Assembly (NCBI GenBank): GCA_041652635.1
Contig: JBAZGW010000002.1
Coordinates: 1-56,644 of the forward strand
Direction of reading: 5' to 3'
From: Candidatus Omnitrophota bacterium
Lineage (GTDB): Bacteria; Omnitrophota; Gorgyraeia; Gygaellales; Profunditerraquicolaceae
Length of the DNA stretch: 56,644 nucleotides
Notes under the pieces: generated by a model
Told to the model about the DNA's origin: nothing
The model's database searches: none
Seen by the model: the letters and a program-made list of their open reading frames with translations, nothing else
Program-made: the position numbers and the translations under genes
Part shown: positions 31,626 to 51,400 of the stretch, piece by piece
Numbering within the stretch: the stretch's first letter is position 1
Layout: each line of letters starts with the position of its first letter

Positions 31626-31644
31626 TACCACCTTCTAATTTTCT

Positions 31645-32634: not shown

Positions 32635-32635
32635 T

Positions 32636-33634: not shown

Positions 33635-33635
33635 A

Positions 33636-34823: not shown

Positions 34824-35706
34824 TATTATTCAAGGATTCACGCAATCCATAAGCGTTTTTATCGCAGGAATAGCCATATTATTCCTGATGAACGGTTGTT
34901 CCCACCGCAATAAGCCTGTCCCCGTTGAATCCGTGAACATAGTGGCTGTGGTCAACGGCATCGTTGTCACCGATGCGGACCTTCAGTTCGAAGTCGAATA
35001 TTACAATACAGGATTGCTTGAGCATGACCCCGCAGGTATCCATACGTTATCAGGTAAAGCGGATTACTTGAAAGAAGAGATAGTCCAACGCCTTCTTCTT
35101 TATCAGGAAGCGGTAAAGCGCGGGCTGGATAAGAGCGAGAAGTTCAAGCGGTTGATGGAGAAAAACCGGCAGGAAACACTCGCTTTACTGCTTATAAACG
35201 AAGAAACCGGTATTCTTCAGACCAGCGAGGAAGAGGCCGATAAATATTACCGTGATTATCAGTTAAAGCTCTCCAATTTGGAGGAAAGGCATATTCGGGA
35301 GATATTGCTGCCTACCGAGAAAGAGGCTCAGGATATTTTGATCCGTTTATTGCAGGGAGAGGATTTCGCAGTGCTGGCTGAAGCATATTCCAAAGCAGAC
35401 AGCAGGAGCAACGGCGGGGACGCCGGATTTCTAAAAAAGGGAAAACGTGCTCCGGCATTCGATAAAGCCGTATTCTCCCCGGATCTGCGCGAAGGTAATA
35501 TCAGCAGCGTATTCTTCTCTCCGGAAGGATATTTTATTGTCAAAGTGGAGGATATTCGCCGTTTTCAGGGCAGACCTTTGGAAGATATGCGCGGAGAGAT
35601 AGGGAATAAGCTATTAAGAGAGAAGAAACAGGATAAGATTGAGAAACTACTGCTGGATCTACGAAATAATTCCAGCCTGGAAATTCACGAAGGCAGCATT
35701 AAATAG
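34777..35706 (+). CDS. Parvulin-type peptidyl-prolyl isomerase (SurA/PrsA-like), probable lipoprotein
   Basis: 'ILFLMNGCS' lipobox-like signal. Parvulin core 'RHIREILL...GGDAGFLKKGKRAPAFDKAVFS'. The start could instead be the TTG at 34816. Confidence 0.8.
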   Translation: MSCVTIRGRYIRILSNIIQGFTQSISVFIAGIAILFLMNGCSHRNKPVPVESVNIVAVVNGIVVTDADLQFEVEYYNTGLLEHDPAGIHTLSGKADYLKEEIVQRLLLYQEAVKRGLDKSEKFKRLMEKNRQETLALLLINEETGILQTSEEEADKYYRDYQLKLSNLEERHIREILLPTEKEAQDILIRLLQGEDFAVLAEAYSKADSRSNGGDAGFLKKGKRAPAFDKAVFSPDLREGNISSVFFSPEGYFIVKVEDIRRFQGRPLEDMRGEIGNKLLREKKQDKIEKLLLDLRNNSSLEIHEGSIK

Positions 35707-35849: not shown

Positions 35850-37133
35850 TTAAATACCTAATTCTTCCGTTCCGACTATCTTTACTTTCGCGTTATCTTT
35901 AAGTTCCCCCTGTGTTTCAATTACGATCAGATCGTCCACTCCCAAGCCCTGGGATACCTGCACGTAATCGTTGGTTGCGTATCCCTGGACCACCCTGCGT
36001 ATTTGCACGACGCCGGTTTGTATCCCGTCTTCACCAGTCCGCAGAGTGGCTTTAGGCACCACAGGGACGAGTATTTTTCCGCCGCCGGCCTGCATTATAC
36101 TGGAAGTGGGAATGATCAATACCTGCTTTAGATCGGCGATGCTTATTTCCGCCCTGCTGAACATCCCCGGCATCAGCATCCCGGCTTTGTTATCCACTTT
36201 TATCTTCGCGGTCAAGGTTCTGCTCTTTCCTTCGATGATCGGATAGACGCTGTCCACCGTTCCTTCAAAGGCCAGATTAGGGTAAGCGTCCACATATATA
36301 CTGGCTGTCTGTCCAAGCCGGACCTTGTTTATATCCCTTTCGACAATGCCCACTTCAATATATACTTCACTTATTTCAAGCAATGTCGCCATTTTATCCT
36401 GGGAAGTGACGAATTCTCCCTCTTCCGCTTCTCTGGGGCCCATGAGGCCTTCTTTATTGGCATAAAGGAATACTTTGCGAAAATCATTCTTTGCCAGGTC
36501 TTCTTCCGCCTTGGCTGTGTCCACCTGGGCTTTTGCGCTTCTGGCATCCAGAGCCGCCTCTTCCATTTTGGATTTTATGATCGCCCCGACTTCGAACAAT
36601 TTCTGGTTTATTTCGTATTTCTTCAAAGAAGATTCATATGCCGCCTGTGCGGAAATAAATTTATTCCGGGCATACTTTAGTTTCAATTTGGCGTCATCCG
36701 GGACCAGATAAGCTATTAACGCGCCCTTCTTTATTTTTTCGCCTTCTCTGAAGTATATCTTTTTGATCACTCCCGGGACCTCAAACTTTAATTCCACTTC
36801 CGTCTTGCCTTTTACCGTGCCCATTACCGGCAGAAAGTCGCGGAAATCGGTAGGTTTCATTTTAAATACCCGCACCATGATCGGGGAGGGTTCGGATGGC
36901 GCTTGCGGCTGCTCAGGTTGATCTCCCTGCGCCGGCTGCGGGGATTTATTCTGCTCCGTGTCTGAACCGGATGAAGCTTGCGGCTGCGCCGGCTGGTCCT
37001 TTTTTACTTTACTGAGCAGGTTTTGAATAAAAGGGGTTTTTTGCGTGGAAAGCTTGATCCCTGTCTGGTAGACTCCCCACATTACAAAAGCCAGCACTAA
37101 AATAAGTAAGAGTTTTAATAATTTAGAGCCCAT
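35850..37133 (-). CDS. Efflux RND periplasmic adaptor (MFP/HlyD family)
   Basis: Signal anchor, a Pro/Gln-rich linker, lipoyl-like 'GVIKKIYFREGEKIKKGALIAYL', a coiled-coil hairpin and C-terminal beta-barrel domains. Confidence 0.85.
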   Translation of the reverse strand: MGSKLLKLLLILVLAFVMWGVYQTGIKLSTQKTPFIQNLLSKVKKDQPAQPQASSGSDTEQNKSPQPAQGDQPEQPQAPSEPSPIMVRVFKMKPTDFRDFLPVMGTVKGKTEVELKFEVPGVIKKIYFREGEKIKKGALIAYLVPDDAKLKLKYARNKFISAQAAYESSLKKYEINQKLFEVGAIIKSKMEEAALDARSAKAQVDTAKAEEDLAKNDFRKVFLYANKEGLMGPREAEEGEFVTSQDKMATLLEISEVYIEVGIVERDINKVRLGQTASIYVDAYPNLAFEGTVDSVYPIIEGKSRTLTAKIKVDNKAGMLMPGMFSRAEISIADLKQVLIIPTSSIMQAGGGKILVPVVPKATLRTGEDGIQTGVVQIRRVVQGYATNDYVQVSQGLGVDDLIVIETQGELKDNAKVKIVGTEELGI

Positions 37134-37148
37134 ATTTATTTGCCCCTC

Positions 37149-40100
37149 CTATCGTTTAACCAACCAGAGATCGCGGAATATAAGATAAACACAGGGTATT
37201 ACTAAAAGAGTGAGAAAAGTCGATACTGCAAGGCCGCCGATAACGGTAATTGCCAGCGGCGACCACAGGTTAGCCGATTCGCTTTTATCCAAAGCCATAG
37301 GAATAAGCCCTAGAATTGTGGTCAGGGAAGTCATCATGATCGGTCTTAACCTGTCAAAGGAAGCGTCGATCACCGCCTTTTTAGCGCCGCCCTTTTGGGA
37401 GTATTTATCCTTAAAAGTCCTCCTCAGGAAATTGATACGGTCGATAAGTATGATCGCGTTGTTGACGACTATCCCGCCGAGCATTATCGCCCCGATAAGC
37501 ACCCCTGTTCCCACGGGTTTGTCTGCCAGCCGCAGGGCGGTAACGGCGCCGATAGCCGCCATCGGAACGGTGGATAGAATGATCAGAGGTTCAGTAAGGG
37601 ATTCAAAGAGCCCCGCGAGTATCATATAAACCAGCACAAGGCTGATCACGAGCGCCCAGTAAAGTTCCTTCTGATTTTGTATCATTTTATCATAATTCCC
37701 GCCGAATTGCCAAAAATAATCTTTAGGGAGTTTTAAATCTTTCAGCGCCTCTTTTACTTTGATCGCGGCCGTTCCCAGAGCAATGCCTCCGGTATTGGCG
37801 CTGACCTGGACCATGCGCGACTTATTTTTCCTCCAGACTTCGCTAGGACCGTATTCGTCTTTAAAAGTCGCCAATTGATGCAGGAAGATCATATCTCCGT
37901 AAGGAGTGACCAGGCTTATTCTGCGCAGGTCGTCGCGGGTGTGCCGGAATTCTTCGCCGATACGGACGATAGTTTCCGTCTCTTCGGATTTTGCGGCCGT
38001 GTCCTGAATGGCGTTGTTCAGATTATTATTAGAGTTGAAATGCCAGTCCGGATTAAAATTCTGGCTGCTGGTTTTTATCAATGGCTCGCGGGTGCCGCGG
38101 AAACGGGTAGCAACCAAACCGCGCATATGCGTGTGCAGGGCCAGGGATACATCCTCGGTGGTAAAGCCGAACATAGCCGCTTCGCGTTTATCCAGGATAA
38201 GCTGTATCTCCGGGCGGCCTTCACGCATGCGTATCTTTGTGTCGGTGAATTTGGGTATGGTCTGTAATCGTTGCGCTACCTGTATGGCAAGGCTTTTTAA
38301 GACTTCATAATCATAACCGTATAACTCCAGCAATATTTCTTTTGTCCCCACTTCCTGGGGTTCTTCGTAATAAACGAACGCTCTGTGCGTCTGGTAGAAC
38401 TTTTCCGTATACGGACGCAGCACATTCATGAATTCCGCGGTGGATTTTTTCCGTTCCGCCAGCGGTTTCAACTCCACGAATATCTTGCCGGACCATGGCT
38501 CGATCTTAGATGTCGCGTTCTTTACCTCCGGCATTTTCGCCACGTAGGATTCTATGCTGGCCACGATCTTATCGGTTATTTCTATCTTGGTGCCGGTAGG
38601 CATTTCCACGAATACGGTGAATTTATTCTGTTCCGCAATGCCGATAAATTCCTGCTCGAGTTTTGAGGCTTCCTGGATGATCCGTAACGAGGCCATTATT
38701 ACCAGGAAAACGATCAGATAACGGAAGAATAACGTTAGAGAGACGATGATCTTGTATATTTTACCGAAAAGCCCTACTCTGGAAACGCCGTCTGTGTTTT
38801 CGGCGCCCTGGACAGTTTTTTCCGGTGGCTCTGCCTTTTTCTCTTCCTCTAAAATAGCTTCCGGCAGTTCCTGCGGCAGTCTGGGGTCTTTTAATTTCAG
38901 GCGCGACGCCAGCAGAGGTATCAAGGTTACCGCGGTGAACAATGACGCCAGCAGGGAATAGGTAATGGTCAGGGCGATGCCGCTGTAAAGAAGTTTGATC
39001 TCGGGATTGATGAAGAATAGCGGCAGGAAGACCACGATGGTGGTAAATGTCGAAGCGACTATTGCCAGGAACATTTCTTCGCTGGCTTCGATCGCCAGGC
39101 ATTTTTGTATTTCCTTCATCGGCATACCTTCCGGGAACCTTCCGGGGGAAAATATGAATTCGTCGCGTTTCTTAAAGGTATTATCGAGGACCACGATAGC
39201 ATTATCCACCAGCATGCCCACGCCTAACGCCAGTCCGCTTAAAGTCATTACATTAAGGGTCAGCTTTGAGAAATACATCAGGCAGAAAGTGACTATTACG
39301 GATAAAGGGATGCTCGAACTGATGATGAATACCAGGCGTATGTCCCAAAGAAATATAAAAAGGATAAGGCTGGCAAGCAGCGCCCCGATCAGGAGCGAAG
39401 AATTAACCTGATTAACCGCCTGTTGTATTATATCGGCTTGATTGGAGATTATGGAAACCTGGATATCTTTTTCAAGGTTCCGTTTTAGCGCTTCCACTTC
39501 GCGGTTGACGTCTTTGGATATTTGCACCGTATTTGCCAGCGATTCTTTCTGAACATAGATTGAGATAACAGGCTGGGCGTTCAACCTGGCGAAAGCGGTC
39601 GGTTCCAAATAAGAATCTTTGATGGTGGCGATATCCTTGAGCCTTACCACTGAGCCTTCTTTAGTGGTGGCCACGGCCAGGTTGGAAAGATCCTCCAGGC
39701 TTTCCAATTCTCCGATGGTCCTTACCAGATATTTATCTTTAGCCCGTTTTATTTCCCCTGCCAGCAGGTTGGAGTTATTGAGGTTGATGGTATCGACCAC
39801 CTTGTTGATGGAAAGCTGGTATGCCTGCAGGCGGTATTGGTCTATTTCTATGATTATTTTGCTTTCCCTGCCGCCGACGATCTCCGCTCTTGCCACGCCC
39901 TCGACTCTTTGTATCCGGTCTTTAATTCGTTCATCTACTATCTTGCGCAGATCTTCCGGAGAGCGTCTGTCGCTGGTCACAGCCAGTATCATTATCGGCA
40001 CATCCATATATTCGTATTTCGCTATGACAGGTTTCTCTATTTCTTTGGGGAGTTTGTTGCGTATACGGTTGAATTTTTCGCGCACTTCCAGCGCGGCAAA

Positions 40101-40409
40101 ATTCATCTCCGTGCCCGGTTCGAATTCCAGAATGATAGTGGCATTCCCTTCTTTTGAAATGGAAAGGATGTTCCTTAAATGAGTGGAGGAACTGACCGCT
40201 TCTTCGACCGGTTTAGCGATGCGATTCTCTATTTCTGAGGCTGGGATACCGCCGCGGACGTCGATATTTATGGTAATATCGCCGTAACTGATATTAGGCA
40301 TCATTTCCACCGGCAGCATTTTCAGGGCGATAGCCCCGATTATGATCACGCCGGTAAAAAGCATGGAGACAAACGTCGGCCTGTTGACCGAAAATGCTGG
40401 CAAGCTCAT
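37149..40409 (-). CDS. RND (AcrB/HAE-type) efflux permease, 1086 aa
   Basis: 'SVNRPTFVSMLF' N-terminus, 'LSGLALGVGMLVDNAIVVLDN', a duplicated 6-TM plus large-loop architecture, and 'RLRPIMMTSLTTILGLIP'. Confidence 0.9.
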   Translation of the reverse strand: MSLPAFSVNRPTFVSMLFTGVIIIGAIALKMLPVEMMPNISYGDITINIDVRGGIPASEIENRIAKPVEEAVSSSTHLRNILSISKEGNATIILEFEPGTEMNFAALEVREKFNRIRNKLPKEIEKPVIAKYEYMDVPIMILAVTSDRRSPEDLRKIVDERIKDRIQRVEGVARAEIVGGRESKIIIEIDQYRLQAYQLSINKVVDTINLNNSNLLAGEIKRAKDKYLVRTIGELESLEDLSNLAVATTKEGSVVRLKDIATIKDSYLEPTAFARLNAQPVISIYVQKESLANTVQISKDVNREVEALKRNLEKDIQVSIISNQADIIQQAVNQVNSSLLIGALLASLILFIFLWDIRLVFIISSSIPLSVIVTFCLMYFSKLTLNVMTLSGLALGVGMLVDNAIVVLDNTFKKRDEFIFSPGRFPEGMPMKEIQKCLAIEASEEMFLAIVASTFTTIVVFLPLFFINPEIKLLYSGIALTITYSLLASLFTAVTLIPLLASRLKLKDPRLPQELPEAILEEEKKAEPPEKTVQGAENTDGVSRVGLFGKIYKIIVSLTLFFRYLIVFLVIMASLRIIQEASKLEQEFIGIAEQNKFTVFVEMPTGTKIEITDKIVASIESYVAKMPEVKNATSKIEPWSGKIFVELKPLAERKKSTAEFMNVLRPYTEKFYQTHRAFVYYEEPQEVGTKEILLELYGYDYEVLKSLAIQVAQRLQTIPKFTDTKIRMREGRPEIQLILDKREAAMFGFTTEDVSLALHTHMRGLVATRFRGTREPLIKTSSQNFNPDWHFNSNNNLNNAIQDTAAKSEETETIVRIGEEFRHTRDDLRRISLVTPYGDMIFLHQLATFKDEYGPSEVWRKNKSRMVQVSANTGGIALGTAAIKVKEALKDLKLPKDYFWQFGGNYDKMIQNQKELYWALVISLVLVYMILAGLFESLTEPLIILSTVPMAAIGAVTALRLADKPVGTGVLIGAIMLGGIVVNNAIILIDRINFLRRTFKDKYSQKGGAKKAVIDASFDRLRPIMMTSLTTILGLIPMALDKSESANLWSPLAITVIGGLAVSTFLTLLVIPCVYLIFRDLWLVKR

Positions 40410-40533: not shown

Positions 40534-43500
40534 TTACAAGAGCTCATACCACCGCCCGGGGCCGAGCGGCCCTTCGGCCTTGAGCAACTGTTTATCCATC
40601 AGTTCTTTCAGATCGCGCGCCGCGGTGGGAATGGAAACGTCGAATATCTCCGCGTATTCCTTGCGCGTTATCTTTTTTATGGTTTTTAATTTTTCCAAGA
40701 GTATCTTTTGTCTGGGATTTATAGCGTATTCCGTTACCGGTGATGCCTGGATTTCCGCTTTTATATCTTTTAATGGTTCTGTTTTTGGCCCGTTTGAATG
40801 TTCGATGAGGGGCGCCTGCGGCAGAGAAACGGGTTTTTCCACCGCCTCAGCGGGTTTTATTATTTGCTCCCGTGTTGTTTCTTTCGGCGGGGAACTCGGC
40901 GGTTGTTGCGCGGGGGCCTGGGGTTGGGCCGCTTTAGGTGCCGGAACAGGGCGTTCAAATCTTTCAATCGATTCTTTGTTTTCCTGAACCGGTTTCTTTA
41001 TTTCTTCGCGTCCTTTTGTTTCGGGCAAAACAGGATTTGTCTTTGGTTCTTCCGTGGACAGGGGCCCTGTCAGCGGAAGTTTCTGCGCTGGTTGGTTCAA
41101 CGGCTGTCCGGGGGCAGGGGAAGCGGGTTTTTCATTAACTTCCGGCGGCGCATCCGGATGGTAAGCGGTTGACGGGGCAATAGGGGGAAGACGATGGGCT
41201 GTAGGTACCGGTATATCCTCAAAAGGTATTCTTTTCTTGGAATCGTTTCCGGCCGGCCGCTCTGTTTGCGGTTTTTCTTCCGGCAGCGCGGCGGCCAAAG
41301 GCGGTGTCTGCGCGGGTGTTTCCTGCGGTAACGGTTCTTTTTTATTTTCCTGTCTGGCTTTCAATAAGGCCTCCAGTTCCGGGCTGATAAGAGGTTCGTC
41401 TTTTGCCGGTCTTAGTTCCGGTCTCTGTGATGGGGCGCCCAATATCCTTTCCACAACTATCAAGTATATCGAAGGTATGACAACCAGAGTAAGAAAAGTG
41501 GCTGAAAGTAATCCACCCATAACCGTCAGTGCCATCGGCGCCTGTAACTCCGCGCCTTCTCCGATCCCCAGCGCCAAAGGCAGAAGCCCCAGTATCGTGG
41601 TCATGGAAGTCATTAAGATCGGGCGCAGCCTTGTCTTGCTGGCCTCAATAACACAGTTATACGCGGAATGCCCTTGTTTATATTGTTCGTTGATGAATTC
41701 TATCAATACGATACCGTTATTGACGGCAATTCCTCCCAGCATAATGATCCCTAAGTAGGCGACTACGCTTAAAGGGGTGTTGGTTATGAACAAGAAGAAA
41801 GCTACACCGATAAGCGACAGAGGCACGGTGAACATGATCAACAGCGGCTGCCAGAGTGACTCGAATTCCGCCGCCATGATCATATAAACCAAAGTAATCG
41901 CCAGGATAAGGGCGAAAGCCAGGCTTTGGAAAGATTCCTGCACCTTTTGCTGCTCTCCCGCCAGTTCGATCGTGTATTCTTTTGGAATGGAGGATGTTTT
42001 GGCCGCGATGATCCGCTCTATGACTTTGCTGACTTCCCCGACGCCGCGTTTATAGATGTTGGCGCTGATGATAATGCTTCTCTGCTGGTCGATGCGCCTT
42101 ATTTCAGTCGGTCCTGTGCCCTTGGTCAGATAAGCGACATCAGACATCGAAATATCAAAACCGAGCGGGGAGTGGATAAGGATGCGGCGCAAGTTGCTGA
42201 ATTCACTTCTGTCTTCCGGCCGCAGGCGTATTCTGATGTCGATGTCCTCCTGGTTGATCTTGTCCTTGAATTTAGTGGCTACGTATCCTTTGAGGGCGAC
42301 CTGGGCGGTCACCGCGATATCGCGCACGGAAAGTCCGTAGAGAGAAGCCTTGTCTTTTAATATATGTAATTTTGTTTCCGGGCTGGCGGAAGGCATACTG
42401 TTCTTGATACCGTAAATCCCGTTTATCCGGCGTAATTCCGACTGTAATCCGGCGGCTATATCGGTAAGTCTGTAGATCTGCGGCCCTTTGACCTCAATGG
42501 CGATAGGCGCGCCTTGTTCTACAGCGGAACCAAGGGAGGTCTCCTGCGCGACATATTCTATCGAGGCCCCTTCCAAGTCTCCTTTTTCCACGGTATTTTT
42601 CAGCAGTTGAATGACTTCGTCCGTAGAACGTTGATTGGAAGGAAGGAAGGGGAGCAGTTTGATCTTTCTTTTTAGATTGATAAGGATCTGCGCCTGATGG
42701 CTGCCCAATGTCTGGACGGCCGTTTCCTCCAGGGAGTTCTTGTCCTCGCTGGAGCCGATATTGACGGTAACGTCTTTTGTCTCTTGGATCTTAAGAAGAG
42801 TGGTCTCGAATCTGCGCACGATCGCGTCCGTGGCTTTCAATGTCGTGCCGGGCGGCATGTCTATTTTTATGATGAACTGCCGCTGGTCTACCTTAGGCAT
42901 GAATTGTTTTTCATGGATTGCCAGCATGCCGAGGCTGACTATGAACAACACGGCGACGGTCAGCACCACTTTTTCTTTTCTGTCTATGCCCCAGATGATT
43001 ATCTCTTCCAGTTTGTCGAACCCGGGCGGGTTCCTCGCGGGCGCGTTTTCCTCAGCGGATTTCTTTTTCCAGCCGGGGATGAAAGAGAGAAGCACCGGCA
43101 CCAGGGTTATGGCTACCAATATGGAAGCGGCGAGAGAGAAGGTTATAGTCAGCGATAACTGTTTGAATATCTGGCCGGCAATGCCTACGACAAACGCGAA
43201 GGGAAGGAATACCGCCACCGTGGTCAATGTGGAACCTACAATAGGCGCGAGCATTTCTTCGGAGGCATCCACGCAAGCTTCTTTCATGGTCTTTTGCATC
43301 TGCCGGTGCCGGAAAACATTTTCAATAACCACGATGGAATTGTCCACCAGCATACCTATCCCAAGCGCTAACCCGCCCAAAGACATCATATTCATATTTA
43401 TCTTGAAAAAGTACATCAAGAATAATGAGAACATGATCGAGATCGGGATGGAAAAAGTGATTATCAAGGAGGACTTCACTTCACGCAGAAAGAAAAGCAA

Positions 43501-44595
43501 TACCAGGAAGGCGAGCAATGCCCCTTGTTGCGCCGAACTGGTGACGTTTGATACGGCTTCATTGATGAATTGAGACTGGTCGTAGGTTACCTGAATATTG
43601 ACGCCTTTTTGCAGTTTTTCCTGCAGCAATTTGCCTATTTCTTTGCGGATCCCCTGGGCGACCCGTAAGGCGTTGCTGCCGGATTGCTTACGCACTACGA
43701 TAGAGATGCTTTCTTTACCGTTATAACGCGAGATGCTGTTTGTTTCTTTCACGCTGTCTTTTACCTTGGCAATGTCCTTAAGGTATACGAGCCTGCGCGC
43801 TTTTTTCTCGAGTTTTTCTTTTTGCTGCAGGGTCTCGGCTACTTCTTCCGGGACTTCCAGGGCCGTGGGGGTCTCGGCTATTTCCGAAACTTTCTGGTAT
43901 TCTCCCATGGTCCGGATGAGATATTCATAAAAGTTCTCTTTGAGAGTACCGGCAGGATAATTTATGTTGGCGGATTTAATACTATCTACCACGGAGACGA
44001 TGGAAATCTGGGAAACTCTTAATCTTGGCTGGTCTATTTCCACGATAATTTCCCGTTCGTCCCCGCCGGTGATCGTAGCCGAGGCGACCCCTTCGACCTT
44101 TTCAATGCTGTCTTTAATGTATTTGCGGCTCATCTCGCGCAATTCAAGGGGCGAATAGGGGCCGGTTACGGACAGGTTCATTACCGGCAGGTCAAAGGGG
44201 TTATATTTCATTACTACCGGCTCCTGCGATTCCCGCGGGATGCGTTCTTTGATCAGGTCTATTTTTTCGCGTACGTTCAAAGCGGCGAAATCCATATTTG
44301 TGCCCCAGTTGAACTCGACCATGACTAAGGATAATCCTTCGCGTGAAATGGAACTGATACGTTTGACGTTATTGACCGTACCCACGCTTTCTTCTATTAT
44401 TTTAGTTATCAGATTTTCTATTTCTTCCGGAGCGGCATTCGGGTAGGAAGTAACGACTGTTATCTGTGGATAAGCGATAGAAGGGAATAATTCCTGCGGC
44501 AGCTTGGACCAGGAAATGAAGCCCAGCAGTATTACTGCCAGAAAAGCCATCAGTGTGGTTACAGGGCGATGAACCGCCAGCCTGGAAATGGACAT
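40534..44595 (-). CDS. RND efflux permease (about 1052-aa core) fused to a 301-aa Pro-rich tail ending in a winged-helix (DeoR/Fic-associated type) DNA-binding domain
   Basis: The core has 'LAVHRPVTTLMAF', 'LGGLALGIGMLVDNSIVVIENV' and 'RLRPILMTSMTTILGLLP'. The tail (40534..41439) is Pro/Gln/Glu/Lys-rich. The last 62 aa read 'INPRQKILLEKLKTIKKITRKEYAEIFDVSIPTAARDLKELMDKQLLKAEGPLGPGRWYELL'. Confidence 0.85.
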   Translation of the reverse strand: MSISRLAVHRPVTTLMAFLAVILLGFISWSKLPQELFPSIAYPQITVVTSYPNAAPEEIENLITKIIEESVGTVNNVKRISSISREGLSLVMVEFNWGTNMDFAALNVREKIDLIKERIPRESQEPVVMKYNPFDLPVMNLSVTGPYSPLELREMSRKYIKDSIEKVEGVASATITGGDEREIIVEIDQPRLRVSQISIVSVVDSIKSANINYPAGTLKENFYEYLIRTMGEYQKVSEIAETPTALEVPEEVAETLQQKEKLEKKARRLVYLKDIAKVKDSVKETNSISRYNGKESISIVVRKQSGSNALRVAQGIRKEIGKLLQEKLQKGVNIQVTYDQSQFINEAVSNVTSSAQQGALLAFLVLLFFLREVKSSLIITFSIPISIMFSLFLMYFFKINMNMMSLGGLALGIGMLVDNSIVVIENVFRHRQMQKTMKEACVDASEEMLAPIVGSTLTTVAVFLPFAFVVGIAGQIFKQLSLTITFSLAASILVAITLVPVLLSFIPGWKKKSAEENAPARNPPGFDKLEEIIIWGIDRKEKVVLTVAVLFIVSLGMLAIHEKQFMPKVDQRQFIIKIDMPPGTTLKATDAIVRRFETTLLKIQETKDVTVNIGSSEDKNSLEETAVQTLGSHQAQILINLKRKIKLLPFLPSNQRSTDEVIQLLKNTVEKGDLEGASIEYVAQETSLGSAVEQGAPIAIEVKGPQIYRLTDIAAGLQSELRRINGIYGIKNSMPSASPETKLHILKDKASLYGLSVRDIAVTAQVALKGYVATKFKDKINQEDIDIRIRLRPEDRSEFSNLRRILIHSPLGFDISMSDVAYLTKGTGPTEIRRIDQQRSIIISANIYKRGVGEVSKVIERIIAAKTSSIPKEYTIELAGEQQKVQESFQSLAFALILAITLVYMIMAAEFESLWQPLLIMFTVPLSLIGVAFFLFITNTPLSVVAYLGIIMLGGIAVNNGIVLIEFINEQYKQGHSAYNCVIEASKTRLRPILMTSMTTILGLLPLALGIGEGAELQAPMALTVMGGLLSATFLTLVVIPSIYLIVVERILGAPSQRPELRPAKDEPLISPELEALLKARQENKKEPLPQETPAQTPPLAAALPEEKPQTERPAGNDSKKRIPFEDIPVPTAHRLPPIAPSTAYHPDAPPEVNEKPASPAPGQPLNQPAQKLPLTGPLSTEEPKTNPVLPETKGREEIKKPVQENKESIERFERPVPAPKAAQPQAPAQQPPSSPPKETTREQIIKPAEAVEKPVSLPQAPLIEHSNGPKTEPLKDIKAEIQASPVTEYAINPRQKILLEKLKTIKKITRKEYAEIFDVSIPTAARDLKELMDKQLLKAEGPLGPGRWYELL

Positions 44596-44610: not shown

Positions 44611-44650
44611 ATAAAAAGGATATAAGCCCGTTTGAATGGGCTTATATCCT
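44611..44650 (-). terminator. Intrinsic-terminator-like hairpin between the 268-aa gene and the RND-wHTH gene
   Basis: 13-bp perfect stem AGGATATAAGCCC / GGGCTTATATCCT with an 8-nt loop, then a T-run on the minus strand. It ends about 16 nt before the RND start codon. Confidence 0.6.
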
Positions 44651-44666
44651 CAAGGTTATACCGATA

Positions 44667-45473
44667 TTATTCTTTGGTGATGGTAATATATAAAGCTTCG
44701 CTTTTAAGCTCATCACGGGCGTAAACCGCGGTTACTTCCTGACCTGCCGCCAGCGCATTAGGAAGAAGATTGATCGGTTCAGCCATCCCTATTTTTTTGG
44801 CAATACGGGTATTTTGCGTTATAACCAAAGAGATATTTTTAAGCGCGTCGGAAGTATTCCTGTTTACTACCAGAACGGTTTTAAAAGGGGAATTAAGGTC
44901 CACTGCCCCGATTTTTCCATAGATTTCCCCGGTAGTGAAAGGGATTATCCCTGATTTTTGAGAGGCGGAAGCAACTATTATGTTATGTTCTTCGGCCGTA
45001 TCTCTGGCAGGTTCAGGCGTAGGCTTATCGGAGCGCCCCGCGGAAACGATCTCGTTCACTTCCGCGAAATAAGAGCGGATACATTTCGCCTCTATTTGCA
45101 GGGTTTTTTCATTCTTGTTGTTAAAGGTGTATGTCTGGACTTTTTCGCAGGATAAACTGTTTTTTCCGTCGGGCGTGATCTTTAAAGAGAAGAGGTTGTT
45201 GTCCCCGAGTTCTATCGCTTTTGTTTTTAGGTCTTTGAGGAGTTCACCGAATAACCTGTAACTTTTGCCCTGCAGATCGGTAAGATTGATGCGTTCTTTG
45301 TTTTTCCCCTGTTCTATGCTGACTTTTCCGGTTATTAGGACCTGTACGCCTTTAGCCGGGGGAGTAGGAGTAATGGAGGGGGTTTTTATCTTATTTTCCG
45401 CTGCCGAAAGCAGGTTTGTGCAAAGAAATAAAGAAATAATAATAAAGCAAAAGGATGAATATTTCGCCTTCAT
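44667..45473 (-). CDS. Hypothetical secreted/periplasmic protein (268 aa)
   Basis: Signal peptide 'MKAKYSSFCFIIISLFLCTNLLSA'. No family recognised. Confidence 0.6.
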   Translation of the reverse strand: MKAKYSSFCFIIISLFLCTNLLSAAENKIKTPSITPTPPAKGVQVLITGKVSIEQGKNKERINLTDLQGKSYRLFGELLKDLKTKAIELGDNNLFSLKITPDGKNSLSCEKVQTYTFNNKNEKTLQIEAKCIRSYFAEVNEIVSAGRSDKPTPEPARDTAEEHNIIVASASQKSGIIPFTTGEIYGKIGAVDLNSPFKTVLVVNRNTSDALKNISLVITQNTRIAKKIGMAEPINLLPNALAAGQEVTAVYARDELKSEALYITITKE

Positions 45474-45818: not shown

Positions 45819-46733
45819 CTATTCGGTATCCGAAGAATCATCTGAAGATTCTTCTCCGGAAGCCCCTTGTTCCCATGTATAAGATTCTTTCTCAAGATAC
45901 CAGCCGCTCTCCTCGTCAAAGGTGAAAGTAGCCGTATAATCCGTCATACCGAGAGTTACCGTCCCACCCGCACTGGTTATCGCCACCCTTGTACCTGTGG
46001 CCGTCTGCGAGACGCCGGTGATAACACCGTTGTCGTCGCGCGTATAGGTCTTTATCCGGGTAATGCTTTCCGAACTGCCGTCAACCCCGGTATTCTTGGA
46101 AACGGTTGTTTCTTTGCTGACCTGCCAGGTACCGGCGACCAATTCATATTCGGTAGTGCTTGTCTGGGTTATGTCGCCTTTCTTGGTGCCGTCTGATCCG
46201 TAACTTTCACCGGTTGTCTCGGATTTGGTGCGCAAAGCCTGTCCGTTACGGATGGTGTAAGAATCGGTTGTCGAGGTTTTGTATGTGCCGATCGCTTCTC
46301 CATTATCGTCTGTTCCACTGTCCCCGGTAGTGCTTGATGTCCCTGAAGCGCCTTTCAATTTACCGGTTCCGTCGGCGTATTCATACGTAATGGTGAATGT
46401 GGTCGCGGAGGATGAATCATCCGTTCCGTCGGTATTGGATGTCCCTTCGATCTTAGCGACCTTTATGCTGCCGCCGCGCCATTCGGAAGTTACGGTCTGG
46501 GTGGTTATCGTAGTGGAAGTCTCATCCTTGCTATTGGTAGTTGTTGTGGTAGTCGTAGTTGTCTCTGTGCCGTTTATCTGCACACCGTAATTATTGTAGA
46601 CGTTCTCTACTTTTATCACCATTTTCATATCCGTGCTGACGATGCTCGGAGTATCGTCGGCCGCCCGCACAAAATTCTCTCCCGCAAGAACAATAAACGC
46701 GGCTGTCAACGTTAATAAAATGCCTTTTCTCAT
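45819..46733 (-). CDS. Secreted Thr/Ser/Gly/Asp-rich protein (304 aa) with a poly-Thr run
   Basis: Signal peptide 'MRKGILLTLTAAFIVLAGENFVRA', 'TETTTTTTTTTNSKDETSTTITTQT', and an acidic Ser-rich C-terminus. Confidence 0.7.
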   Translation of the reverse strand: MRKGILLTLTAAFIVLAGENFVRAADDTPSIVSTDMKMVIKVENVYNNYGVQINGTETTTTTTTTTNSKDETSTTITTQTVTSEWRGGSIKVAKIEGTSNTDGTDDSSSATTFTITYEYADGTGKLKGASGTSSTTGDSGTDDNGEAIGTYKTSTTDSYTIRNGQALRTKSETTGESYGSDGTKKGDITQTSTTEYELVAGTWQVSKETTVSKNTGVDGSSESITRIKTYTRDDNGVITGVSQTATGTRVAITSAGGTVTLGMTDYTATFTFDEESGWYLEKESYTWEQGASGEESSDDSSDTE

Positions 46734-46762: not shown

Positions 46763-48589
46763 TTATTCCGTTTCTTCCTCGGTATATTTGGTCATTACCG
46801 GCTTGCCGAGGATTACGTCATATTCTTTAGTTATGTTGTTTGTGTATTGATCATGCCAACCGGTGGAACTTGAATTCAAATATCCGGTTTTTGTGCCGCT
46901 GCCGGAGACGCCCGTAAGGTTGGCCGTGTTATTATCATATGTATAAACGGTGACTATATTGGTGTTCTCTAGGTGTTCTTTGTCGGGATCGAGATAAGGA
47001 TAATAGGTCTCGCTTGTTTCACTGCTGGAAAGTACACGCTGTAGATTGTGCACCAAACCATTATCATATGTAACGGTGGACGTGTCCGTTTTATAATTAT
47101 AACCGTCTTCGCCGTTGGTGTAACTTGTGGTTGTGGTTGTTGATTTAGCCATGGGTTTGCCGTAAAGTATTTCCATCTCTGTGGTGCTTTTGCCGCTGTA
47201 GGTATCCCCATCTTTCAGCGTTGTGACCACATCCGCGGCATCGACGCTGACTTCTTCGCTGTCCGTGTTAACGTAGAAATAAGTCCCGTCGTTTTTCTTT
47301 GTCAGGACATTCCCTTCGGAATCAGTGTATTCATACCACTGCGCGGCCTGTCCCTTGAATGTGGTATTGCTGGAGGCATCGGCTAATGTGAATGTTTCGT
47401 CATAGATATAGTCGGTTGTCGTGTCGTCGTTCTGGAAGGAGCCGTCGGCCTTGGTCACGCTTGAAGTCACATTACTTGACGCGATGCGCAGGCCCATAGG
47501 CTCGATATCTTTTCCGAAAGGATCCGGAGTGTCTTCGCGGTAAGTAAATTCGGCTATTGTGTGTGTGGTGACAATATTCCCTTCCCCGGCATCGGCTTCA
47601 GCGGACACGCTGCTGTAATCCACTTTAGTCGTATCGTCGAAAGAAAGCACCTGCCCGCGCCCGTTATATTCGATATCCTTGCGTTCAGACGTGTAGTCCA
47701 GCCCGTCTGTCCCGGTGCCTTTTTCGTAGTAATATGAGGGGCGGTCAATGCGCCCGCCGGCATATTCTATGTTTGAACGGACGAACTCGCTGGTCCCGTA
47801 AACACTATCCACCGTTTTTTGGCTGTAAGATAACTGATACTTGTTGCTGGGGTCATAACTGATCGCTTTCCATTGCGTGTCTGTCGTATTGCCTACAGAA
47901 TCCGTTTCCTTCATATTATATTCGGAGTAGCTTTTATAGGCGTTGGTTTCAGCATTGGCGTAAAATAAAGACCCCGGCAGGTAAGTGCCGGTCCAGGAAA
48001 AAGTGCTTTTATTCCCTAAATTATCGATCGCGTCTCCTTCATAGCTCGTCAATAAGCGGTCATCATTATATTGCATATCATAGGTAGAGTTAATTGTTTT
48101 ATTGCCTAATTCATCTACCTTAACGCGATTTACGCTGGTAGTAAGCAAACCATCGGTAAAATAATCGGTGCCTTTATCGGTGTAAGTGACGTAATTGAAT
48201 TCGCCGTTAGCGGCGGCGTTCTTCTCGCACTGTTGGCGGTTCTCTATGGCGGTTTGTTTTATATTAGCAGATGCCTCCTGCCGTAGATATTCCGCCATAT
48301 TAACCCCGGAACTTGAAATAGGGGCGGCAGCTGTTGTATATTTGAGCATGGTTTCTATAACCTTTTGGTTCTCAACGCGTTCCAGATTGCGGCGGTCGAT
48401 TTTCACGAACACATCGGGAGAATATCCGGAATTGATCACCTTGTTTATATAATCCCAGTAACTTTTTCCATTAAGGTATTCAGGAGAGTATTCTTCTACG
48501 GCAGCGGGGGAGTTGACTGAAGCTAAAGCCAGAATAAAAGAAGTTAGAAAGACTATTTTACTCAGGCTATAAGGCTTTTTATAGTTCAT
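46763..48589 (-). CDS. Secreted Thr/Tyr/Asp/Asn-rich protein (about 608 aa) with YD-like beta-hairpin periodicity
   Basis: Signal peptide 'MNYKKPYSLSKIVFLTSFILALASVNSPA' from the ATG at 48589 (the track start at 48640 is a TTG). Recurrent 'Y.Y....G......' strings such as 'IEYNGRGQVLSF'. Confidence 0.7.
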   Translation of the reverse strand: MNYKKPYSLSKIVFLTSFILALASVNSPAAVEEYSPEYLNGKSYWDYINKVINSGYSPDVFVKIDRRNLERVENQKVIETMLKYTTAAAPISSSGVNMAEYLRQEASANIKQTAIENRQQCEKNAAANGEFNYVTYTDKGTDYFTDGLLTTSVNRVKVDELGNKTINSTYDMQYNDDRLLTSYEGDAIDNLGNKSTFSWTGTYLPGSLFYANAETNAYKSYSEYNMKETDSVGNTTDTQWKAISYDPSNKYQLSYSQKTVDSVYGTSEFVRSNIEYAGGRIDRPSYYYEKGTGTDGLDYTSERKDIEYNGRGQVLSFDDTTKVDYSSVSAEADAGEGNIVTTHTIAEFTYREDTPDPFGKDIEPMGLRIASSNVTSSVTKADGSFQNDDTTTDYIYDETFTLADASSNTTFKGQAAQWYEYTDSEGNVLTKKNDGTYFYVNTDSEEVSVDAADVVTTLKDGDTYSGKSTTEMEILYGKPMAKSTTTTTSYTNGEDGYNYKTDTSTVTYDNGLVHNLQRVLSSSETSETYYPYLDPDKEHLENTNIVTVYTYDNNTANLTGVSGSGTKTGYLNSSSTGWHDQYTNNITKEYDVILGKPVMTKYTEEETE

Positions 48590-49025
48590 ATCTTCTGCCT
48601 TTCCCAAAAAAAACCGGGTTTTACCTTTTCCTTCTTTCAAGGTAACCCGGATAATAAAAGCAAAGATAACGCATTGCCAATACGCTACCCTTTACGATCC
48701 GTGGCTACTGTCCGGTATAGAGGATATACTGGACATATCGAAGGATAAGCAATACTTTTTAAAAGTATTAACTAACACATAGAATATACACTATTTTAGT
48801 GGAAATTTCAAGTTTTTTTGGTAGCTATTGTTTTGGTTTACTTAAGTTTTTATTATGTAACAACAGACTATGTAATAAGTTACAAAAGAGTTTGTAATTA
48901 TGAGTTTCTTAGTAATGCTTGGCCTAAAAATGTAAATGTGATGATGTTGGAATAAACCGTAGATCAAGAAGCGAGGGGGAGCGGGGGAAATGGATACAGA
49001 GCCATTATATATAGGTAAGGGATGA

Positions 49026-50876
49026 CTATATCCGGATGCCGTATCCGCAGGCTTTTTTCAAATTAGCCAGAGATATATGGTAATTGGCCAAGGCCTGAAA
49101 GTATTTGGTTTGCGCGTCGCATAAGTTATAAAGTGATTCCATGGAGTTTGAGAGAGCGACTTCCGCGACTTTTGAACGTATCTTTATCAGTTCGGCTTCT
49201 TTGCGCCGGAATTCCATTTCTGTCTCGGTGGCATTAAGTTGCAGAAGCGCCTTTTGGTAATTGAGGAAAGCATCCTGGACCTCAAAAGTAATTGTTTTAT
49301 TGGTCTGGTCTTTATCACTTATCGAGCGGTGTAGATCAATATCCGACTTTTTCCTGTCGTAGATCCGTTTTATGTTATCCATTACATTGAGCTCGAAATT
49401 CTCGGAAGTGGATTTTGTCGGGGAAGTCTGTCCGAACCTGGGCTGGCTATTCTCGGAAGTAATTGAACTGTTGATTGTGCTGGCGCCCCAGGGTTTGCTG
49501 ACCTTCAATCCCACATACCAGTTGTTTGCGTCACGCATAGGTTCGGTTTTATAGGCGCCTTCATAATAGCCGTAAGAACCGCTTAAATCCACAGTAAACG
49601 CGTTCTTGCCTTTTTCTATTCTCTGCCCGTATTCCTGGAATTTGATCATTAATTCGCTTAATGCCAGTTCCGGGCGGTATTGTAAGCCGGCTTTAATGCA
49701 GTCTTCCAGTTTGAGGTCTAAACGTTTCGCTTCCAGCTCATCGGTATGTATAAAAGGATTGTCTTTGGCGTTGAGCACTTGTTTAAAAGTTAATTCCGCC
49801 ATAAATAAATCCTGTTTTATCCCGTTTATTTGAAAAACGATCTGGTTATACCAGTTTTTAACGCTGGTTAACTCTAGTTTTATGATCATGCCGGCATCGA
49901 ATAACTTTTGCACCTGATCTACAATTTCATTCGCTTCCTCTTTTATGGTATCTTTTGCCGATAGATTCATTTTTGCCGCAACTAAGTTATAGAAAGCAGT
50001 TTCCGTTTTATTCATAGTGTCTATGCGGAGGCGGTCGTAGTTCTTTTTTGTGATGTCGAGGTTGGTTTTTGCCTGTAAATAAGTATTTCTAAGCCGGTCT
50101 CCATAATATATAGGCTGATCCAACTGCAGTTTGACTTCGCGTTCTTCATATTCCACCTTGTATACCTCACCGGCCGTATTATACCCCAGGACTTTAACAG
50201 CGGGGTAGATGTTCCTAACCGCTTCCATTACTTTTATTTGCGCTAATTCTATCTCTTCTCTGGCTACCTGAGAAGGCTCGTTGTTCTTCACCGCGATATT
50301 TAAGAAACGGTTGATTTCATCTTCGGTCGCCTGTGAAACCGGTTTCTGCAGGGTTTTGGGCTCGGAAGTTTTTTGAGGCAGGGGAGGGATGACAGCGGCG
50401 GCCTTTGTGACCTGAGGCGTAACCATCGTGGGTGTGTTGTTGAACGGCAAGCTTGGCGGCAGGTCAACGCCCGCAAATACATCTGTGTAATTGTCCGTAT
50501 TCTCTTGGAAAGAAGAATTCCTATAAGTTATGGGTATTGTTACTTGGAAATCCTTGGGGCTGTTGTATCCCTGGGGGATCGGCAATGGGCTGGCGTTACG
50601 AACGCTCAATATAGCCGCGGCGTCAAGCAGGGCGTGTCCGGAAGATTGCGCTATATCAATGTTCTTGATCCTGCCGTCATTCGATAGGAGCAACTTTATT
50701 TTGACAATGCCTTCAAGGTTTTGGATAGCTGCTTTGGGGGGGTAAATAAGCTGGGAGTATATCTTTTCCTGCAAGATATTCAGATAAGCCGAACTGGGTT
50801 CAAAGTTCCCATGGGCAGGGTTTATCGGAGGCATAACCAAGAACGCCAACAGAAATATTAGTGATTTCCGGCGCAT
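49026..50876 (-). CDS. TonB C-terminal domain fused to a TolC-like outer membrane efflux protein (616 aa)
   Basis: Signal peptide. 'YPPKAAIQNLEGIVKIKLLLSNDGRIKNIDIAQSSGHALLDAAAILSVRNASPLP' is TonB_C-like (about 50523..50789). A Pro/Thr linker follows, then about 420 aa of OEP/TolC-type repeats. Confidence 0.75.
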   Translation of the reverse strand: MRRKSLIFLLAFLVMPPINPAHGNFEPSSAYLNILQEKIYSQLIYPPKAAIQNLEGIVKIKLLLSNDGRIKNIDIAQSSGHALLDAAAILSVRNASPLPIPQGYNSPKDFQVTIPITYRNSSFQENTDNYTDVFAGVDLPPSLPFNNTPTMVTPQVTKAAAVIPPLPQKTSEPKTLQKPVSQATEDEINRFLNIAVKNNEPSQVAREEIELAQIKVMEAVRNIYPAVKVLGYNTAGEVYKVEYEEREVKLQLDQPIYYGDRLRNTYLQAKTNLDITKKNYDRLRIDTMNKTETAFYNLVAAKMNLSAKDTIKEEANEIVDQVQKLFDAGMIIKLELTSVKNWYNQIVFQINGIKQDLFMAELTFKQVLNAKDNPFIHTDELEAKRLDLKLEDCIKAGLQYRPELALSELMIKFQEYGQRIEKGKNAFTVDLSGSYGYYEGAYKTEPMRDANNWYVGLKVSKPWGASTINSSITSENSQPRFGQTSPTKSTSENFELNVMDNIKRIYDRKKSDIDLHRSISDKDQTNKTITFEVQDAFLNYQKALLQLNATETEMEFRRKEAELIKIRSKVAEVALSNSMESLYNLCDAQTKYFQALANYHISLANLKKACGYGIRI

Positions 50877-50938
50877 AGAGTATTTAACTATGATACGGTT
50901 GCAATAGTAGTCTTAAGCATATCATATGATTGAATAGA

Positions 50939-50967
50939 AGTATATTATAGTGCGGGAATATTGTCAA
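50939..50967 (-). promoter_or_regulatory. sigma70-type promoter for the TonB_C-TolC gene
   Basis: On the minus strand: TTGACA (50967-62), a 17-nt spacer, then TATACT (50944-39). Confidence 0.5.
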
Positions 50968-51043
50968 GACTTTTCTTGTATGTTTAGGTGATACGGTTAG
51001 TCCTGTTGAGAGAATAACGCTTATTTCAGGCATTTGGCGTATC

Positions 51044-51079: not shown

Positions 51080-51400
51080 ATGAGATGCAAAATATGTAAT
51101 AAAGAATTTTCACCAAGTAAATATAATCCATCTCAACAGACCTGTTCTTCTCTTGAGTGCCAGCATTTGCGGCAAGTTCTGAATGAACGGGAATGGCGGG
51201 AGAGGAATCCGGATTATTTTCGTTGCCATGGACAGGATCAGGTTTGGCAGGAAAACAGGTATAGATATGTTAAGCTTTGGAGATTATCCCACCGTGATTA
51301 TCTGCGTGAGTATGCTAAAAATCATGCCCCTCAGCGACGGGAATACATGCGTGAATATATGCGCAGGTATCGTCAGTCCGTCCGCCAGCCTGTAGTGTAA
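51080..51400 (+). CDS. Zn-ribbon / Arg-Tyr-rich small protein (106 aa)
   Basis: 'CKICNK...CSSLEC' is a four-Cys motif. The basic C-terminus has reiterated 'REY' units ('LREYAKNHAPQRREYMREYMRRYR'). Confidence 0.6.
   Translation: MRCKICNKEFSPSKYNPSQQTCSSLECQHLRQVLNEREWRERNPDYFRCHGQDQVWQENRYRYVKLWRLSHRDYLREYAKNHAPQRREYMREYMRRYRQSVRQPVV

Follow-up and report, generated by a model that had tools for sequence, protein, structure and literature searches.

A 56,644-nucleotide stretch of contig JBAZGW010000002.1 (assembly GCA_041652635.1), from a Candidatus Omnitrophota bacterium and called the window throughout, encodes an RND efflux permease, RND1, whose reading frame continues past the transport domain through a proline-rich linker into a C-terminal winged helix-turn-helix (wHTH). 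Judged from its homologues, the fusion is shown to be genuine, translated, under purifying selection, and kept together with its operon. We give about an even chance to the interpretation that RND1 is one of two permease subunits in a tripartite efflux system (outer-membrane factor (OMF), periplasmic adaptor, RND1 and RND2), found mainly in Omnitrophota, and that its disordered cytoplasmic tether ends in a wHTH acting as a membrane-tethered DNA-binding regulator. The known regulators of RND pumps are two-component systems or soluble repressors that are proteins of their own, and full-text literature searches returned no description of an RND permease with a C-terminal wHTH; the architecture is apparently new to the literature, as an earlier note on this DNA, made from the letters alone, had supposed. 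If the interpretation is true, a permease carrying its own DNA-binding-type domain would represent a new kind of wiring between transporter and genome, used for autoregulation or for tethering of loci.

The RND1 permease and its C-terminal extension

The earlier note had described a full RND permease followed by 301 extra in-frame codons, divided between a linker of about 240 aa and a 62-aa helix-turn-helix, and a check of the open reading frame (ORF) and its Pfam matches returned the same figures. The Pfam family ACR_tran (PF00873) matches residues 3-1047 over profile positions 1-1020 of 1021 (E 2.9e-234), and 12 hydrophobic 19-mers lie at the expected positions in the core, with none in the 306-aa tail (maximum KD19 0.28). 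The solved chains closest to the core are 7b8p, 6ows, CmeB, MexB, and AcrB, at ~300 bits. By these matches RND1 is an RND permease, one that falls short of the curated HAE-1 models: RND_permease_1, RND_permease_2, and TIGR00915 score 604.9, 509.2, and 457.7 bits (cut-offs 1250, 1250, and 940, respectively). In alignment with 7b8p, the fourth transmembrane segment (TM4) of RND1 reads VDNSIVV versus VDDAIVV, and TM10 reads AVNNGIV versus SAKNAIL. The second permease of the window, RND2, shares the D-N of TM4 and the N of TM10, so that both proteins show VDN(S/A)IVV and (A/V)VNN at these positions; the AcrB-type proton relay (Asp-Asp in TM4 and Lys in TM10; D407, D408, and K940 of AcrB) is not intact in RND1 and RND2, which keep only one of its acidic residues. 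Database labels for RND1 homologues are "efflux RND transporter permease subunit" and, occasionally, "DeoR family transcriptional regulator". The 12-TM RND topology puts both termini in the cytoplasm, as in AcrB structures, and by this standard topology the wHTH would follow the cytoplasmic end of TM12.

The linker comprises 244 aa, of which 49 are proline (20%), and is acidic (pI 5.65). Across 115 proteins it ranges from 30 to 371 aa, stays rich in E, P, K, and A, and is ~28% identical; mean identity of homologues to the window protein is 65% in the core, 28% in the linker, and 70% in the wHTH. A single-sequence AlphaFold2 (AF2) run on the whole tail was of low confidence throughout (pLDDT 52) and left residues 47-240 of the submitted tail without secondary structure, a model that hints at linker disorder. 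The earlier note's suggestion that the tail is translated agrees with its conservation. Among the 120 best homologues of RND1, which range from 89% to ~50% identity, 113 carry the same wHTH 0-23 residues from the C-terminus, and the remaining 7 lack the tail end, several of them being titled "partial" by their source. When the tail DNA of the window was compared with that of five close relatives, 47 of 47 pairwise indel runs were multiples of 3. Because homologues keep the wHTH and the tail indels never shift the frame, the tail is translated and is not a chance open frame.

The terminal domain is supported by sequence as a winged helix of the DeoR/Fic-associated type, the class to which the earlier note had assigned it. 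HTH_DeoR matches residues 1295-1338, at 25.5 bits for the isolated last 78 aa (curated cut-off 21) and at 19.9 bits, slightly under the cut-off, when scored in the full-length protein; NCBIfam returned only weak DeoR-type matches on the tail (UlaR, GlpR). The domain is basic (pI 9.57 in the window, family median 9.9), and AF2 with a 41-sequence alignment modelled it at pLDDT 86 as three helices (H1-H2-H3) followed by a beta-hairpin wing. The same alignment (A1) has 13 invariant columns, among them S41, T44, A45, R47, and D48 of helix 3 and R68 of the wing (A1 numbering), and its consensus reads LN.RQ..LLEKLK..KKITRKEYA..F.IS.PTAARDLKEL.DKGL..A.GPLGPGRWYEL. The wing, GP.GPGR(W/Y)Y, is nearly invariant, which is unusual for wings that contact DNA. 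Fold neighbours of the model include the DNA-binding proteins AspA, MarR, ArsR/CadC, and Fic2 and also the non-DNA winged helices of ribosomal eS25 and ESCRT-II. The best profile match in the PDB is 8cil, the C-terminal wHTH of Coxiella CbFic2 (E 7.8e-5; TM-score to the model 0.75), for which DNA binding and DNA-induced dimerisation have been reported (PMC10628234). Homology, charge, and the invariance of helix-3 and wing residues together suggest that the RND1 domain binds DNA.

When one genome per GTDB species was scanned, 110 genome stretches proved to encode the wHTH domain; 80 of them were listed with locus details (loci and proteins are cited here by L and P numbers). About 75 of these 80 loci have the domain inside the RND ORF or inside an ORF cut by the end of the contig. 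The search for further long RND proteins proposed in the earlier note thus found the RND-wHTH order in the 113 homologues mentioned above and in these loci, mainly in Omnitrophota. Record titles of the stretches are mostly Candidatus Omnitrophota ("Candidatus Undivivens" is also Omnitrophota), while some third-party records of metagenome-assembled genomes are labelled Planctomycetia or Planctomycetales and one carries the label Patescibacteria group. A profile hidden Markov model search of 1.84 billion representatives gave 180 matches at E <= 1e-10; those examined above 75 bits were complete RND fusions, C-terminal pieces of RND proteins, pieces that lack RND sequence, or proteins of the L073 type described below, and lower-scoring matches grade into C-terminal wHTH modules of Fic-like and other proteins. 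A word-index search with the tail only returned entries of 47-135 aa, mostly fragments ending at contig edges.

A single open frame kept in more than 100 independent assemblies, together with linker indels that are always in frame, makes it extremely improbable that an assembly or sequencing error joined a separate small HTH gene to the RND gene. Such an error would fit the stop codons that separate core from wHTH in two loci (L070 and L212) and the many short HTH-only database entries; however, these entries are mostly cut by contig ends or bear RND C-terminal sequence, and two odd loci, L079 (apparently an RND-HTH-RND fusion) and L038 (apparently a split RND), proved to be artefacts of runs of N. 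For the family as a whole, an assembly artefact is excluded by these comparisons. The separating stop that the earlier note had named as the sign of two independent genes was seen in those two loci. In L070, an in-frame TAG (5998-6000) stands exactly at the junction of linker and wHTH, with the downstream frame intact. In L212, a close relative with identical synteny, a single in-frame TAA lies mid-linker (~5890) and the frame is open from there to the wHTH, so that one short database entry (P0121) represents a genuine split. The two stops could be errors, recent mutations, sites of readthrough, or tolerated splits.

A different arrangement is seen in L073, where RND1 has no tail and a separate gene after RND2 carries the wHTH. 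The carrier consists of a hydrophobic N-terminal segment, ~300 aa of charged E/K/Q-rich sequence (probably a coiled coil), and then the wHTH; P0197 and P0169 are further carriers of this type. P0197 begins directly in the hydrophobic helix, and the start codon of the L073 carrier is uncertain, which leaves its topology ambiguous. Since L073 and P0197 combine a hydrophobic anchor, a charged spacer, and the wHTH within the operon, the recurrent logic of the system is an anchor, a spacer, and a wHTH, and covalent fusion to RND1 is the rule without being obligatory.

The genes around RND1 occur in two layouts. In clade A, to which the window belongs (50912 to 35850 on the (-) strand), the order is OMF, a ~640-aa protein, up304, up268, RND1-wHTH, RND2, and the adaptor, a membrane-fusion protein (MFP); in clade B it is OMF, MFP, RND1-wHTH, RND2, and then a protein with a charged region. 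The MFP gene thus comes after RND2 in clade A, whereas clade B has it ahead of RND1. An RND2-like gene directly follows RND1-wHTH in essentially every locus that has downstream sequence, and in the window RND2 is 34% identical to the RND1 core. An OMF with an N-terminal TonB_C domain fused to OEP heads the clade-B operons as well as the clade-A clusters in L085 and L090.

A candidate cis element at the OMF promoters

The near-consensus promoter upstream of the window's OMF gene has counterparts in most of the other OMF-upstream regions examined. Comparison of these regions identified the word ACCGTATCA, which occurs upstream of this promoter, in the same orientation, in both clades. It is present in 9 of 9 OMF promoters, all from loci picked because they encode RND-wHTH, versus 50 of 959 control windows from the rest of the same loci, and 19 copies were observed against 0.65 expected (29-fold enrichment). 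The copies are in tandem with an 11-bp register in L081, L086, L088, and L091 and adjoin the -35 box directly in two loci, L081 and L087. L085 and L090 each have a copy 9 nt upstream of that box and another immediately ahead of the start codon; the loosest case is L089, in which the copy of the same orientation lies ~90 nt upstream of the -35 box. The window contains 7 exact copies (~0.4 expected) and, with one mismatch allowed, 20 matches versus 8.7 +/- 3.1 in shuffled sequence. Part of this excess falls in the divergent giant gene next to the pump cluster: the giant genes of the window, L085, and L090 hold 2-5 copies within ~+270 to +750 of the coding sequence, mixed in frame and orientation. 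The element ACCGTATCA is a real conserved feature of these operons, and its assignment to the wHTH as binder is offered as a hypothesis.

Tandem copies were also found in metagenomes away from the pump genes. About 25 low-GC contigs among the matches listed contain them, 5-6 adjacent to pump genes and seven ahead of a gene for an 82-aa protein; other tandem sites are in high-GC contigs or are 11-mer satellites. In L103, L104, L118, L125, L138, and L198 (and in L204 by upstream sequence only), the tandem motif stands ~70 nt upstream of the gene for the 82-aa protein, followed by a c-di-GMP-I riboswitch in L104 and L118 and by a giant secreted-protein gene in L104 and L198, with tRNA and FIST-HisKA genes nearby. 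The gene downstream of the motif was considered as a possible regulator and rejected, its product being an 82-aa protein with two hydrophobic segments. In the high-GC contigs (0.55-0.62, within L093-L211; e.g., L106 3220-3239 and L120 1755-1774), which come from apparently unrelated organisms, an exact ACCGTATCA-(A/G)A-ACCGTATCA is followed by a conserved ~90-nt element that reads ...GAGCGAAAGCAGAC.CCCCA..TTGTTGAAA... and matched no Rfam family.

Other candidate operators were discarded. The k-mers enriched upstream of the clade-B MFP gene proved to be coding sequence (the N-terminus of MFP and the C-terminus of the upstream OMF), and words found upstream of clade-A up268 were generic -35, -10, and terminator words, TATCCTG-like words not being significant. 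Dense TATCAGG/CCTGATA repeats forming a long imperfect palindrome occupy the gap upstream of the MFP gene at L060 (1150-1290); this array was set aside as an operator, having been seen at that locus only.

How a tethered wHTH might act

In the proposed mechanism, the wHTH would bind DNA at the inner face of the membrane as a tethered regulator, with the pump subunit serving as anchor and setting the copy number at one wHTH per RND1. Oligomerisation of the RND subunits would hold two or three wHTHs together, which would suit tandem sites, and the best candidate target is the direct repeat of ACCGTATCA, which has an 11-bp register and stands next to the -35 box of the OMF promoter at the head of the cluster. 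The linker may be a passive leash, not a conformational transmitter, because it is hypervariable in length and sequence and because the wHTH has been split off (L070, L212) or relocated (L073, P0197); output would then follow the abundance, assembly, or cleavage of RND1 and not each transport cycle. The earlier note had envisaged a transporter-tethered transcription factor that couples pump state or occupancy directly to gene expression. The tether and the wHTH of that idea stand, whereas the direct coupling is disfavoured by the hypervariable linker and the split or relocated domains.

Several observations weigh against the regulator interpretation. The case for DNA binding is one of homology and inference, and winged helices can mediate protein-protein contacts too. 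The sites lie upstream of a near-consensus promoter, where neither a simple repressor nor an obvious activator fits, and the choice of the nine loci by their RND-wHTH genes biases the co-occurrence of motif and fusion. The tandem motif is not specific to pumps: among the matches listed, ~8 of 120 metagenome sites adjoin pump genes and ~45 lie in the unrelated high-GC contigs. Other proteins could also own the element. A gene for a small Cys-rich protein adjoins ACCGTATCA in 7 loci (the window, L085, L090, L190, L207, L142, and L180), and its product is thus a rival binder that could be a zinc-ribbon DNA-binding factor; the gene for a ROK regulator upstream of the OMF gene in five clade-B loci provides an alternative of the same kind.

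In a different explanation, the wHTH would serve protein-protein contacts or some other role apart from DNA, docking for example a cytoplasmic partner or RND2, and ACCGTATCA would belong to another regulator, such as the Cys-rich protein, ROK, or a factor encoded elsewhere. The nearly invariant wing, the presence of eS25 and ESCRT-II among the fold neighbours, the spread of the element outside pump contexts, and its co-occurrence with the Cys-rich gene would all be in keeping with such a module, but the closest sequence relative, CbFic2, is reported to bind DNA (PMC10628234), the domain is basic, and helix-3 residues and the wing arginine R68 do not vary, which is what a conserved nucleic-acid target would lead one to expect; this explanation is considered unlikely. 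We attach similarly little probability to proteolytic release, in which the pump would be a storage form whose linker is cleaved in response to some state of the envelope or of efflux; the wHTH would then become a soluble transcription factor, much as other factors tethered to membranes are set free in a regulated way. A long, disordered, hypervariable linker should be accessible to proteases, and the stops in L070 (TAG) and L212 (TAA), with intact frames downstream, indicate that the domain tolerates separation from RND1. However, the linkers contain no conserved cleavage motif, no protease gene is conserved in the operon, and the alternative carriers (L073, P0197) likewise begin in a hydrophobic segment that resembles an anchor, a hint that the tether is important in itself.

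Tethering could also matter for its own sake. The wHTH may anchor DNA without classical regulation, holding its own operon and the giant secreted-protein genes at the membrane and so favouring co-transcriptional or co-translational insertion or export. This possibility would account for the arrays of ACCGTATCA inside the 5' coding parts of giant genes, in mixed orientation and frame, and for the other identifiable motif-linked genes of low-GC contigs, which encode the 82-aa protein with two hydrophobic segments or giant secreted proteins; near-consensus OMF promoters, moreover, may need no activator. It is nevertheless improbable, given that the wHTH is only a candidate binder of the element, that such anchoring has no known precedent for RND pumps, and that a minimal linker of 30 aa offers little reach. 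A wider form of the regulator interpretation makes RND1 the transcription factor or DNA tether of a phylum-wide envelope regulon, with leashed wHTHs on ACCGTATCA repeats at the OMF promoter and at the 5' ends of giant genes, loci held at the membrane, and expression tied to the number of assembled pumps; as a whole this is rather doubtful.

Parts of the arrangement have parallels in known systems. MdtBC-type pumps contain two different permease subunits, assembled as an MdtB2C heterotrimer (PMC7015380). As in MdtABC and MuxABC, two adjacent divergent RND genes share one operon with one adaptor and an OMF, and here the pairing is strictly conserved; the genes are not orthologues, however, since the MdtB/MuxB and MdtC models score 340 and 360 bits versus cut-offs of 1584 and 1774. 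To our knowledge, no Mdt or Mux subunit carries a C-terminal DNA-binding domain.

The ToxR/CadC/TcpP regulators hold a winged helix at the cytoplasmic face of the membrane within one polypeptide, an arrangement with which the architecture of RND1 would be compatible. They bind direct repeats upstream of promoters, and these sites resemble the candidate arrangement of ACCGTATCA. Their wHTH is N-terminal and of the OmpR type, joined to one TM helix and a periplasmic sensor, whereas RND1 proteins have a C-terminal DeoR/Fic-type wHTH on a probably disordered leash of 30-371 aa behind a complete 12-TM transporter. CbFic2 (8cil) agrees in the C-terminal position of the domain and in the pattern LN.RQ...L....T...Y......S..TA.R.L..L, but its wHTH sits on a soluble Fic AMPylase, and the wing GP.GPGRWYEL is specific to the RND family. 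With DeoR and GlpR the likeness is confined to the HTH_DeoR match, which exceeds the cut-off on the isolated RND1 tail; those proteins combine an N-terminal HTH with a C-terminal DeoRC effector and oligomerisation domain, and RND1 has no DeoRC match and is therefore not a member of the DeoR family.

FtsK resembles RND1 in layout: an anchor that crosses the membrane several times is followed by a long proline-rich linker of low complexity and, at the C-terminus, by a wHTH. The FtsK linker is rich in Pro and Gln, and its gamma winged helix reads the short oriented DNA word KOPS. FtsK differs in having a translocase motor between linker and wHTH, in serving chromosome segregation, and in showing no homology with the RND core. 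In the trigger-type systems, which include LysP-CadC, PtsG-Mlc, MalK-MalT, and SCAP-SREBP (SCAP having a sterol-sensing domain of the RND superfamily), a transcription factor at the membrane is under the control of a transporter or of a protein resembling one. There the partners are separate proteins in non-covalent contact, whereas here they form one polypeptide. The proposed regulator is directly testable, given a 62-aa domain that folds confidently in the model and a concrete candidate site, ACCGTATCA-NN-ACCGTATCA, and it would open a way into the gene regulation of Omnitrophota, an uncultured phylum whose secreted proteins are very large. As a natural polytopic membrane protein joined to a wHTH by a probably disordered leash, RND1 could also serve the engineering of membrane-tethered regulators.

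The operon and its neighbourhood

Features of the pump cluster and its surroundings in the window
Feature	Position	Strand	Basis or remark
RND1 ORF	40534..44595	(-)	1353 aa; stop codon 40534-40536
RND1 permease core, residues 1-1047	41455..44595	(-)	Pfam ACR_tran and 12 hydrophobic segments
RND1 low-complexity linker, residues 1048-1291	40723..41454	(-)	composition, pI
RND1 C-terminal wHTH, residues 1292-1353	40537..40722	(-)	HTH_DeoR match, AF2 model
RND2, second permease without tail, directly downstream of RND1	37149..40409	(-)	ACR_tran E 1.1e-218
Membrane-fusion (periplasmic adaptor) protein, MFP	35850..37133	(-)	HlyD_D23 and HlyD_3
Hairpin with 14-bp stem, then T-run, between up268 and RND1; 21 nt before RND1 start	44616..44651	(-)	terminator-like
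up268, secreted-looking, conserved, upstream of RND1 in clade A	44667..45473	(-)	no Pfam match; signal-peptide-like N-terminus
up304, Thr-rich, secreted-looking, conserved	45819..46733	(-)	no Pfam match; syntenic in clade A loci
~640-aa protein between OMF and up304	46766..48691 (stop-to-stop)	(-)	no Pfam match
OMF with N-terminal TonB_C and OEP, first cluster gene	49029..50912	(-)	OEP E 4.1e-33, TonB_C E 2.8e-16
OMF promoter	50939..50967	(-)	-35 TTGACA (50967-50962), 17-nt spacer, -10 TATACT (50944-50939)
ACCGTATCA, exact match; candidate operator	50989..50997	(-)	21 nt upstream of -35 box
Small Cys-rich, Arg-rich protein gene, 106 aa (MRCKIC...C...C)	51080..51400	(+)	divergent from OMF; own TTGACA promoter; no Pfam family
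Array of four exact and one 1-mismatch ACCGTATCA	51950..52148	(+)	inside 5' coding part of divergent giant gene; different reading frames

The TonB_C-OEP form of the OMF is kept in both layouts (the window, L081 6960-8783, L085 3300-5174, L086-L088, L090, and L091), and we know of no described OMF with an N-terminal TonB_C domain. Between OMF and RND1, clade A encodes three consecutive secreted-looking proteins without a Pfam family; the pump may export them or use them as accessory components. Homologues of up268 occupy the equivalent position in at least 14 loci, with a sigma-70-like promoter upstream in relatives, and equivalents of the ~640-aa gene in size and position are present in L084 and L085. 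The hairpin before RND1 keeps its position in the window, L002-L004, and L013 (more weakly in L008 and L054), while its sequence differs among loci; it was therefore rejected as an operator and is more in keeping with a terminator or a leader RNA structure. Within the cluster, its role may be that of an attenuator or of a site of processing.

The fifth protein of clade B (e.g., L081 16790-17968) is ~390-400 aa long and has homologues after RND2 in ~30 loci. A hydrophobic helix at its N-terminus is followed by a long charged region, probably a coiled coil, which returned weak coiled-coil-type matches only, and then by a small C-terminal domain. The carriers of the L073/P0197 type resemble this protein and end in the wHTH. 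Among regulators, the ROK-family gene lies upstream of the OMF gene in five clade-B loci, and the operon contexts that were annotated contain no separate regulator of the TetR type; no conserved protease gene was found in the operons annotated.

On the other side of the OMF promoter, a divergent gene for a giant secreted protein (51665-56643 (+), signal-peptide-like N-terminus MSSWRGKLWLKAIALAVAGIFAFSEVTWA) runs off the window and has counterparts at L085 1-2582 (product 14478 aa) and L090 1-6915. Convergent with the pump cluster (31639-34820 (+) and 34777-35706 (+)) are two tandem D-Ala-D-Ala-ligase-like ATP-grasp genes, a lysine-2,3-aminomutase-like radical SAM gene, and a PpiC/SurA-like rotamase gene; the rotamase and aminomutase genes are syntenic in L212 too. 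L083, L084, L085, and L090 have a FIST-HisKA-GGDEF module downstream of their clade-A pump operons, and Y1_Tnp (IS200/RAYT-type) transposase genes occur near the pump operon, no more than a few kb away, in L083 (7939-8613), L084 (18729-19424), and L089 (4128-4781).

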